Part shown: piece by piece, positions 40,789 through 42,868 of the stretch
Position numbering within the stretch: the stretch's first letter is position 1
Layout: every line of letters begins with the position of its first letter
From: Halarcobacter sp.
Lineage (GTDB): Bacteria > Campylobacterota > Campylobacteria > Campylobacterales > Arcobacteraceae
Assembly: GCA_048571215.1 (NCBI GenBank)
Contig: CP182352.1
Coordinates: 2,336,001 to 2,400,000 of the forward strand
Length of the DNA: 64,000 bases
Direction: 5' to 3'
The notes under the pieces: model-generated
Told to the model about the DNA's origin: nothing
The model's input: only the letters and a program-made list of their open reading frames with translations
Databases searched by the model: none
Position numbers and translations under genes: made by a program

Positions 40789-40952
40789 TATCTACTCCCT
40801 TAAAACTTCTTATTAATACTTTATTAGTTAAATTCTTAAAAGATTCTTAATAGATTATTAAAAATATAAAGCTAATAAAATAAAGTTGTAATATATTTTA
40901 AGATTATAAAGTTTATTGATTTTAAACCTGAGTTAGGTAGCGACTGTTCCCT

Positions 40953-41139
40953 TTATCTCTTTCTTTTGATTAAAGACCATAAAATTAGTAATCCAAAAAG
41001 AATAAAAAATATTCCAATAGGATAATAAAGAAAAGGAGAATCTAAGTCAAAATAAATTCCTCTACCCATAATTTCTTTTGTAACTATTACTTTAACCCCC
41101 CAACATAATAAAAAGAATTCCAACTATAAATACTATCAT
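40953..41139 (-). pseudogene. Frameshifted small 2-TM protein gene (immunity-like)
   Basis: MIVFIVGILFIMLG / VKVIVTKEIMGRGIYFDLDSPFLYYPIGIFFILFGLLILWSLIKRKR*; one extra G in a G6 run at 41096-41101; AAGGA RBS. Confidence 0.65.
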
Positions 41140-41234
41140 TTAATTAGTCCTTAAAATAATTTACAATTGATCATTTAATAATTCTTCTGGAGAAAAAAGG
41201 TAGAAAAAAGGTACCTGTCACCTTTATTTTTATT

Positions 41235-41591
41235 TCAATTTAGTTCTTCCCATATCTCTTTTTTGTCATCTTTATTATAATATTTTTCCAAATTTATCGT
41301 TTTAATATTACATTTAGGACATATACCATCTTTTAAATTAGGGTAATTATATGTTTCTTTACATTTTGGACATTTTGAATATTCTATAGATTGAAATTTT
41401 CTTTTTCTTTTAATTGCATAAATATATATTATAAGTCCAAAAATCATTTCAATCGAACCAATTATTATTCCATTGCTAATATCATGATAATAAATAACAC
41501 TTTTACCACCAATACCAGGAATATATTTGATATTAAAGAATATACCCAATAATCCTCCGATTATAAATAATATACCAATAAATTGAATCAT
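41235..41591 (-). CDS. 2-TM protein with C-terminal zinc ribbon (immunity-like)
   Basis: Two hydrophobic helices, CPKC...CPKC; start overlaps the TGA of an upstream stump (ATGA). Confidence 0.7.
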   Translation of the reverse strand: MIQFIGILFIIGGLLGIFFNIKYIPGIGGKSVIYYHDISNGIIIGSIEMIFGLIIYIYAIKRKRKFQSIEYSKCPKCKETYNYPNLKDGICPKCNIKTINLEKYYNKDDKKEIWEELN

Positions 41592-41675
41592 TGTTTTGGA
41601 ACACTTTTATCATTAGGATCATAACTAGGTAAAAAGGTGCCTGTCACCTTTATTTTTTTATTGTTATTTATATAT

Positions 41676-41704
41676 GCATTCCCAAGCTGGAGCTTGGGAA
41701 CGAG
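41676..41704. repeat. REP-like GC-rich palindrome
   Basis: gca-ttcccaagct-gg-agcttgggaa-cgag, 10-bp perfect arms. Confidence 0.7.
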
Positions 41705-41730
41705 GAAAGATGGCGATTGTCCCAAAATAT

Positions 41731-41949
41731 TCATAGAGAAATCCCAATTTTTTCGAATAAATCCTTAAAATCCATAGGTTTTAATTTGTGATATATGCTA
41801 CCAAATAAAACAGTTATAAAAATTGTTGTACCTGGTCCCCCTCTGTCAAAATTAATCATGTTGAATAAAGATAATATAATTGCTACTATATATCCCCAAA
41901 GTATTAATAAGCTTATATATGCAAGAATATACTGTAAAAGTTTAAACAT
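41731..41949 (-). CDS. Small 2-TM protein (immunity-like)
   Basis: 72 aa, two hydrophobic segments, AAGGA RBS, directly downstream of the Rhs-like fragment. Confidence 0.65.
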   Translation of the reverse strand: MFKLLQYILAYISLLILWGYIVAIILSLFNMINFDRGGPGTTIFITVLFGSIYHKLKPMDFKDLFEKIGISL

Positions 41950-41965
41950 TATAATTTCCTTGTAT

Positions 41966-42154
41966 TTATTCTAAAGGTGTAACTTTTGCCCAATTATTAA
42001 ACAAATGCACAAAAGCCCCAGTAACAGCACCATTTGCAAACTTACCACCACTTATTTCTGAAACAGCACCTGATACTAAAGATGTAAACATAGTTCCCCT
42101 TTCCTACTCCCAACCTTATGGTGTTGCAAATCCTGATGATTCAAATCCATCCCA
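41966..42154 (-). pseudogene. Rhs/YD-repeat pre-toxin region fragment
   Basis: One frame reads WDGFESSGFATP*GWE*ERGTMFTSLVSGAVSEISGGKFANGAVTGAFVHLFNNWAKVTPLE*; the GGKFANGA..GAFVHLFN segment is recalled from Rhs-family proteins. Confidence 0.7.
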
Positions 42155-42205
42155 AAAAATGTGTCTGTCCCCTTTATTCTGTCCCCTTTATTCTTTATTT
42201 CTTTT

Positions 42206-42396
42206 TTATTTTCGTGCTTTATTATAATCATCGATTTCTTTCACAAATTTATAAAATTTAAATATAATAAAACCTATATATGGAATTAATAAAATTAAAA
42301 TAATTTGTCCTACTTCAGTATAACCAAAGAAATCAAATATTATAGCTTGAATAAATGGGAAAAAAATAATAGTAACCACTTAAAAAAAGTTTTCAT
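42206..42396 (-). pseudogene. Frameshifted small 2-TM protein gene
   Basis: MKTFFKWLLLFF / FPFIQAIIFDFFGYTEVGQIILILLIPYIGFIIFKFYKFVKEIDDYNKARK*; restored by one extra T in the T7 run at 42360-42366; starts right after the upstream TAA. Confidence 0.55.
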
Positions 42397-42567
42397 TTAA
42401 AATATTTTTTCTCCCCTCATTTTTTTTACTCCCATATATGTGAAAGGTATCCCAAATAGTTTATATACGGAATCAATATTAATATTTGGAATATAATAAT
42501 TACAAGTAAATATAATAAATCCTAAAAATAGTAAAAAAACTCCTAAAACAAAATCTTTATTCTTCAT
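42397..42567 (-). CDS. Small membrane protein, 56 aa (immunity-like)
   Basis: MKNKDFVLGVFLLFLGFIIFTCNYYIPNINIDSVYKLFGIPFTYMGVKKMRGEKIF*; AGGAG RBS; below the ORF-track cutoff. Confidence 0.6.
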   Translation of the reverse strand: MKNKDFVLGVFLLFLGFIIFTCNYYIPNINIDSVYKLFGIPFTYMGVKKMRGEKIF

Positions 42568-42868
42568 ATTATCGATCTCCTAAGGTGGATAATTTTTATC
42601 TTGCATATTTAAAATCTTCTTGTAAAATGCACCTGTCCCATTTATTATTCTAAAAAAACGTCACATTCTCGTCACAATGAGTTGTTTTTTTCCATAAATT
42701 TTGATATTTCTTTAAGATTGTTGCTTTTTTATGATTTAAAGCTGAGTTAATTTAAAAACAATAAAAGAATTTAAATTCCATATACAAAATAAAAAAATAA
42801 ATTCAAGTGAGATTAAAAAAAAAATCTGATAAAATAACAAATTTAAAATAAATGTCTAAAGAAGAGTT

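Follow-up and report, generated by a model that had tools for sequence, protein, structure and literature searches.

Solo TIRtron terminal repeats separate Rhs toxin-tail and putative immunity genes in a strain-variable island of Halarcobacter sp., with a proposed one-ended capture mechanism

How do the tails of toxin genes, lacking their heads, and small membrane genes come to be stacked in one direction, with one short motif recurring between them? This question is raised by the interval between the genes sco and moxR in a Halarcobacter sp. genome (assembly GCA_048571215.1, contig CP182352.1), which lies in the window studied here, the whole 64,000-nt stretch from 2,336,001 to 2,400,000 to which positions below refer; G000 is the genome under study, other G numbers are other genomes, and L numbers are loci. 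Six co-oriented copies of the motif start on the minus strand at 42645, 42191, 42177, 41653, 41227 and 40956 and span 40936–42645 (Table 1). A 17-nt pattern with at most three mismatches matches the window six times, compared with a mean of 0.61 in shuffled sequences and six in 0 of 100 shuffles, which bears out the six related motifs of one orientation reported in an initial annotation of this DNA. The 7-bp hairpin described there forms in the two best copies (-5.6 and -3.4 kcal/mol), and the other four fold weakly or otherwise. An Rfam scan of the region gave no matches.

The motif, which had been taken for a new one, is, as judged by its sequence, the terminal repeat (TIR) of the TIRtron/TIRYT class, described in 2013, whose enzymes are Y1/HUH tyrosine transposases of the RAYT superfamily. 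It fits the published consensus GGGGWSAS (Di Nocera et al. 2013, PMC3733652): exact GGGGACAG, or its one-base-gapped form, is present in three of the six window copies, and the copies with GGTGACAG and GGGAACAG are one base off the TIR consensus type. Copies of the motif point inward on both sides of the closest enzyme relatives. When 36 distinct Y1 genes are considered and four at contig edges are set aside, an inward TIR lies upstream of 20, downstream of 17 and on both sides of 14 of the remaining 32 TIRYT-like genes, whose flanks are complete, as against two and no outward TIRs, and a TIR background of 1.9% of windows. The TIR variants track the enzyme clades, and the exact window motif is carried by the enzyme that is sister to that of G000 (99/96 support); from this correspondence it is predicted that TIRYT enzymes bind and cut the TIR.

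The only Y1 gene of G000, identified as the single PF01797 match above cut-off among 17 candidates, has one TIR, upstream, 119 nt before its start. It keeps the HUH and tyrosine motifs (H60, H62, Y120, N124 and P125 are invariant in 7/7 aligned sequences) and probably belongs to TnpA-Y1 subclass 2.1 (Quentin et al. 2018, PMC6006769); its score with NF047646 (RAYT/TnpA-REP) is 78.2 bits versus a cut-off of 80. As regards the C-terminal HTH of that subclass, an HTH_23 match is found in the 262-aa enzyme clade and none in the 222-aa clade, which includes the G000 enzyme. The gene is frameshifted near codon 175, encoding 177 aa versus 221 aa in its cluster, and assembly error is rejected because the 177-aa form occurs on two contigs from two sources. 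A Y1 gene is carried anywhere by 42 of the 150 family genomes. The exact 22-mer of the motif also occurs in 66 metagenome stretches (L132–L197, 26–71% GC), mostly alone, a Y1 gene lying within 2.5 kb in two of these, and a transposase search of genome contigs gave one partial locus.

The open stretches after four motifs, the 56-, 72- and 118-aa open reading frames (ORFs) and the ATGA overlap lie where the initial annotation placed them. Sequence comparison identifies two of the four stumps, those of units 2 and 3, as genuine Rhs tails. The stump of unit 2 matches the C-terminal region of a 2269-aa Rhs protein of G082, which has RHS/YD and Rhs-core matches; an internal deletion takes nearly the whole toxin domain, and nine residues remain past the conserved part. 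The stump of unit 3 is homologous to the end of a stump at 808 kb of G000, itself 52% identical to the G082 toxin tail, and its ending, KSVPK, recurs in the relative P0012. For stumps 1 and 4 homologues were sought in G000 and its congeners and none were found, and an open frame is expected by chance in most 40-nt stretches. The orphan rhs-CT/rhsI layout, a headless Rhs tail directly before its partner gene, therefore fits units 2 and 3 and is not supported for units 1 and 4. When G000 was searched with a 650-aa Rhs query, matches to its last 70 residues only were obtained, at nine places, and an Rhs core was not found there.

The 72-aa gene is 56% identical to a G044 gene that follows an intact toxin tail with the same ending, TPLK, and has a paralogue at G000 811945–812151. 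The homologue of the 118-aa gene in G082 sits directly behind an Rhs gene of full length, and 11 of the 18 loci of this family lie directly behind the end of a long ORF on the same strand, with Rhs evidence for two of those 11. In L238 and L240 (G001 and G036), members of this zinc-ribbon membrane family stand behind tails of long non-Rhs proteins, in arrays mostly without TIRs. The last gene had been described as a separate pseudogene with two membrane helices; it is instead a truncated member of the 118-aa family, ending at its KRKR, where the last motif severs it. These three small genes, having toxin-adjacent homologues, are probable immunity genes, judged by position alone. The gene pair of unit 1 differs in this respect, its one clear match among 183 genomes being a tandem homologous pair in G098, behind an HD-like gene and with no adjoining toxin or TIR. 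The view that the interval consists of orphan toxin-tail/immunity units thus holds for units 2 and 3 and the last gene; it does not extend to stumps 1 and 4, nor can all the small genes be called immunity genes. The second ORF of unit 1 and the last gene are both frameshifted in homopolymer runs; assembly error was rejected as the cause, the X2 contigs from a second sample having no gaps over the small genes. No small ORF matches a Pfam or NCBIfam family above cut-off. Genes had been said to stop within about 15 bp of the next motif, which is so for three of the four unit-ending genes (distances of 14, 7 and -4 nt); the exception is the 72-aa gene, whose stop lies 77 nt from the motif and is separated from it by a 22-nt palindrome resembling a repetitive extragenic palindrome (REP).

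Genome-wide, 15 of the 25 motif matches fall in three arrays, that of the window and those at 807–812 and 2553–2561 kb, together 14.5 of 3614 kb. Fourteen of these 15 copies are co-oriented with the array genes, and the fifteenth points into the Y1 transposase gene. The arrays at 807–812 and 2553–2561 kb are better preserved than that of the window, and their units have the order motif, conserved Rhs pre-toxin stump, variable tail of about 100–130 residues, small gene. The 2553-kb array, the largest, lies head to head with the sole Y1 gene, 182 kb from the window. When the 118-aa gene copies of the window and of the 807-kb array are compared, their homology stops in the TIR core. The block in the window is best explained as a decaying satellite of the orphan Rhs toxin-tail/immunity arrays of G000.

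The association of TIRs with Rhs loci is also seen in relatives. Of the 150 family genomes, 14 have the conserved Rhs stump, and in five of these a Y1 gene lies no more than about 2 kb from it. In six of seven long Rhs loci the first immunity gene is followed by a TIR, and a TIR lies at most 200 nt before 21 of 36 orphan stumps (8/13 genomes; six long and two contig-edge rows set aside), versus 2.7% of random windows; with G000 left out the count is 12/27. In loci with an intact reference, Rhs homology begins 0–20 nt from the TIR edge, at different codons, and no shared target sequence was found at the toxin-side joints. Different TIR variants are joined at different Rhs positions, and five G000 stumps have one common junction. 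In G044 (L079:8780–9120 and neighbours) a 65-nt two-ended TIR mini-element, whole or partial, separates six of seven Rhs units. The full-length Rhs proteins of L072, L073, L077 and L078 (about 2250 aa) have a hydrophobic N-terminus, often with several genes of 100–110 aa nearby, and three of the four Rhs genes adjoin a type II secretion-like gene cluster.

In several independent loci the breakpoints are located at the edges of TIRs. One contig, from run X5 of another study, has nearly identical flanks and joins 40938 to 42827 with 65 other letters between; because of this join, the island is absent in the X5 strain and its distal end falls in the 3' part of the last TIR, in agreement with the breakpoints at the motif that had been anticipated for a strain comparison of this interval. 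The interval from 20 of 24 congeners contains no array and no TIR (two of the loci are uninformative). A 3.56-kb insert in G056 ends about 12 nt past a TIR, and the G000 site is empty. G166, G130 and G176 have common flanks and differing DNA that ends at the TIR 5' edge. In G017 a 1.38-kb unit, consisting of TIR, stump, tail, immunity gene, TIR and TIRYT gene, is a new insert, the site being empty in 5/5 congeners. G000 and G020 share a gene, 98% identical, that has a TIR at its end and neighbours that differ between the two genomes on either side; one 79-nt module of palindrome and TIR, with 98.7% identity between its copies, is attached at different points to two toxin alleles, the adjacent immunity genes being only 81% alike. 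Joints with short sides in X1 and X2 were not counted as excision, as they match paralogous arrays.

Table 1. Features of the sco–moxR interval (window positions).
Feature	Position	Strand	Basis
Whole strain-variable island, sco–moxR interval, about 1.9 kb, 25.5% GC	40939..42826	-	X5 contig
Imperfect 18-nt direct repeat of 40917–40935, near the island's proximal end	42732..42749	-	Seen directly
Leader with promoter-like box (TGTGACG doublet, then TAGAAT)	42644..42740	-	Common to head of 807–812 kb array
TIR copy 1, degenerate; 5' edge cuts leader	42624..42645	-	Pattern scan and leader comparison
Open stretch 1, short frame	42580..42623	-	Frame confirmed; toxin-tail status not supported
56-aa membrane ORF, first of two-gene pair	42397..42567	-	55% identical homologue in G098
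Membrane gene of about 62 codons, frameshift in T-run near start	42206..42396	-	51% identical homologue in G098
TIR copies 2 and 3, full copy preceded by stuttered 14-nt partial copy	42155..42191	-	Pattern scan
Rhs pre-toxin stump (unit 2), with stops, frameshift and internal deletion of toxin domain	41966..42157	-	G082 Rhs match
72-aa putative immunity gene	41731..41949	-	Homologue behind toxin tail in G044
REP-like 22-nt palindrome, within 79-nt module of palindrome, spacer and TIR	41679..41700	-	Sequence comparison
TIR copy 4, best hairpin	41631..41653	-	Pattern scan, folding
Last 13 codons of Rhs toxin tail (unit 3), overlapping next start codon	41588..41630	-	Homology to 808-kb stump
118-aa putative immunity gene, two membrane helices and CxxC-CxxC zinc ribbon	41235..41591	-	G082 homologue
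TIR copy 5, 7 nt past stop of 118-aa gene	41205..41227	-	Pattern scan, ORF frames
Open stretch 4, short frame	41161..41204	-	Seen directly; toxin-tail status not supported
Frameshifted, 3'-truncated 118-aa family member, cut by last TIR	40953..41139	-	Sequence comparison
TIR copy 6, GTCGC-type variant found at array ends; carries island's distal breakpoint	40936..40956	-	Pattern scan, X5 contig

The leader is 92% identical over 97 nt to G000 812423–812519. Its type of box heads many G000 promoters, from which a promoter function is inferred; a sigma-70 promoter scan was at chance level (19 versus 18 in shuffles), and no tie of the leader to intact Rhs operons was found. The box, TGTGACG-N5-TGTGAC, is at 42659–42676 of the window and at about 16 other G000 sites, in the -35 position of many promoters, and also upstream of TIRYT genes in relatives. 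The 18-nt direct repeat is weak evidence, because its 8-nt core occurs 103 times in the genome. The 79-nt module recurs at G000 808085–808163, and its palindrome has three genome copies. TIR stutters resembling copies 2 and 3 are seen in further genomes, and a contig of RNA run X6 matches window 42169–42619 with 14 gap letters, as many as the TIR stutter is long; the X6 contigs cover parts of the array and are not usable as proof of transcription. A plasmid search gave four distant records among 72,556, so that there is no sign of plasmid carriage. At the other arrays, the 2553-kb array and the transposase gene are flanked by a 147-bp direct repeat of 99% identity (2553637–2553783 and 2561022–2561168; L002), which is the 3' end of a host gene, the site being empty in G147, and a Mutator-family insertion sequence (IS), present in about 15 near-identical copies, directly adjoins the 807-kb array at its distal end (G000 806022–807239). 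Several Arcobacteraceae have variable islands in which solo TIRs stand at the 3' ends of genes of defence type (Shedu, AAA-ATPase, HEPN-like) (L117, L118, L119, L127, L130; G000 385069–387110).

It is possible that these arrangements are generated by one-ended capture, in which a TIRYT enzyme moves units of cargo and TIR, and this is the reading favoured here, with moderate confidence. The enzyme would bind the TIR hairpin on single-stranded DNA and cut both at the edge of the hairpin and at a second, loosely specified site farther off, and joining of the ends would move a unit of which one end is fixed and the other variable. TIRtrons often lie directly behind Rhs immunity genes, so that the cargo would typically be an immunity gene with a random length of toxin tail. 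Such units would be inserted behind other TIRs or a promoter, and arrays of one orientation with a TIR as their last element would result, in which the toxin parts would decay afterwards, some immunity genes staying intact. The TnpA-REP of E. coli cuts more than 400 nt from its hairpin and carries out strand transfer in vitro (PMC3333891), and by analogy TIRYT may behave likewise. An enzyme acting in trans, as the initial annotation had supposed, would be encoded by the lone HUH/Y1 gene, its activity on the window sites being predicted from sequence; the window array is probably frozen in this strain because the resident enzyme is frameshifted. This reading departs from the earlier one in two ways. 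The joining would not be of the integron type, because the TIR side is fixed while the toxin-side position varies, and the collection would not be specific to toxins, because islands that hold defence and other accessory genes likewise have solo TIRs at their ends. The data suggest that TIRYT helps bacteria to collect toxin-tail/immunity genes; that TIRYTs are the engine of a widespread integrase-free gene capture, with the 23-nt hairpin as a one-sided attachment site, is a more tentative proposal.

Several observations weigh against capture. The proximal end of the island has no TIR, and X5 holds 65 unseen letters there. The 147-bp target duplication at the 2553-kb island is not predicted by the capture model, the resident Y1 gene is frameshifted, no circles or enzyme activity were seen, and no TIRYT assay appeared in the literature retrieved. 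TIRs are not required for arrays, because 15 of the 36 orphan stumps and whole arrays (G052 0/3, G347 0/2) are without them. The relaxed TIR pattern used in these counts was written after the variants had been seen, and kin and duplicated units are not independent. Closeness of TIR and stop codon is not enriched in the metagenome loci (31/63 versus 48% of controls) and modestly enriched in the family loci (11/29 versus 19%). The outer edge of a two-ended mini-element forms the joint in G033 and G044, for which insertion with an adjacent deletion is also an explanation. The TIRs could, less probably, be mere passengers, the arrays having arisen by C-terminal displacement, through homologous or homology-facilitated recombination, and mini-elements having then been inserted in A/T-rich gaps behind immunity genes with deletion of neighbouring toxin DNA, so that the enzyme would prune arrays and not build them. 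Displacement is a published model (PMC5361080), and the TIR-free arrays, the 65–170 nt two-ended mini-elements at joints in G044 and G033, the single junction of five G000 stumps, as recombinational copying would give, and the 147-bp duplication, which suggests a homology-based crossover, all agree with the passenger reading. It does not agree with whole inserts whose end is a TIR that is lacking in the empty allele, nor with the new TIR-to-TIRYT unit of G017, and the window island has no Rhs core for recombination, none being found in the genome.

It is improbable that the dispersed TIR copies serve only as short homology for host recombination or slippage, giving gain, loss and stutter without a transposase. 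The slippage-like partial tandem copies, the broken enzyme and the end of the shared 118-aa gene homology in the TIR core would fit, but new TIR-to-toxin joints at many positions and islands with a TIR at one end only are left unexplained. Moreover, about 20 nt is short for RecA. Least of all is a true site-specific cassette system to be expected, in which IntI or a Xer-like tyrosine recombinase joins motif to motif. The layout resembles that of rAID arrays (10.1101/471110), and G000 has an intact integron integrase, its only IntI (895245–896189; TIGR02249, 398 bits), beside a GC-rich structured stretch. This gene is about 1.48 Mb away with no adjoining TIR, the motif brackets Y1 genes and not recombinases, and the joints on the toxin side are variable. 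For attC cores (RYYYAAC ... GTTRRRY), a search by simple pattern rather than by covariance model gave no pairs on either strand of 40881–42760, and no recombinase is found in the part of the window from 34 to 50 kb, in line with the initial annotation. The array in the window is real and is a decayed satellite; the capture mechanism is proposed.

TIRtrons (PMC3733652, PMC6006769) and orphan toxin/immunity arrays (PMC3150448, PMC3482391) are already known; the link between TIRs and Rhs and the empty-site alleles are new at this locus. No literature linking TIRYT or TIRs to Rhs arrays or cassette capture was found, in a search covering few subscription journals and no supplements. A supposed link between a RAYT group and rhs found no confirmation in 10.1101/119735, a text in which 'rhs' occurs 0 times, and 10.1101/2024.07.17.603846 mentions RAYT and Rhs separately, in the text available without a link. 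The function of the TIRYT class has been called untested (PMC3733652, PMC6006769), and the mechanism by which orphan toxin/immunity arrays are assembled has been called unknown or hypothetical (PMC3150448, PMC5361080). The locus ties these two questions together, and both can be tested in one simple assay because there are a defined 23-nt site, intact enzyme homologues and natural filled and empty alleles. If capture is the right reading, it would be a source of new toxin tips as well as of orphan immunity genes; should the TIRs be no more than passengers, the locus is an ordinary decayed island.

Compared with described TIRtrons, the GGGGWSAS-type end repeat and its inward arrangement around a Y1 gene with HUH and Y-x-x-x-NP motifs are the same (PMC3733652, PMC6006769). 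TIRs are known as low-copy solo and dimeric elements, subclass 2.1 being prevalent in epsilonproteobacteria, and no cargo or arrays were found described in these two papers, in whose main texts 'rhs' occurs 0 times. The present genome, unlike those descriptions, has solo TIRs of one orientation that mark off toxin-tail/immunity units far from the gene. The headless toxin tails, each with a small immunity-like gene after it, resemble the orphan rhs-CT/rhsI and cdiA-CT/cdiI arrays (Poole et al. 2011, PMC3150448), and co-orientation and exchange between strains are shared with these and with displacement arrays (Kirchberger et al. 2017, PMC5361080). The known arrays follow a full-length gene and have conserved coding motifs as their bounds (PMC3150448, PMC5361080), whereas the search of the present genome gave no Rhs core and the units start at a transposase end-repeat and at variable codons. 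The rAID arrays of Bacteroidales (Ross et al., 10.1101/471110; 10.1101/2025.05.03.651265) likewise consist of co-oriented small immunity-like genes with a repeated intergenic motif and have a candidate mobilising enzyme (10.1101/471110). At least two co-oriented small genes with such a motif, by which rAID arrays are recognized, are present in the window array, but its flanks are sco and moxR and not an adjacent 5' XerD-like recombinase (10.1101/471110). Polyimmunity loci (Zhang et al. 2012, PMC3482391) are similar arrays of small immunity-like genes, described as uninterrupted by toxin cassettes; here, unlike in rAID and polyimmunity loci, an HUH transposase in trans is proposed and the toxin stumps are kept. 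RAYT/TnpA-REP systems (Ton-Hoang et al. 2012, PMC3333891) have a related enzyme and hairpin-anchored cuts at variable distance, and TnpA-REP has been proposed to sequester flanking genes. Unlike REPs, the present motif has no GTAG foot, occurs in 20–25 copies and not in hundreds, and is clustered in accessory islands. One-ended capture, with cargo and one element end, a variable far end and stacking in direct orientation, is also a property of ISCR/IS91 and of IS26 translocatable units, whose enzymes are Y2 and DDE transposases, unlike the Y1 enzyme here. In contrast to those units, the 23-nt end alone travels with the cargo, and not a whole IS. If the capture reading is true, the system would be an HUH counterpart of integrons and rAID, in which toxin-immunity, defence and other cargo are stacked behind the hairpin by an enzyme in trans.

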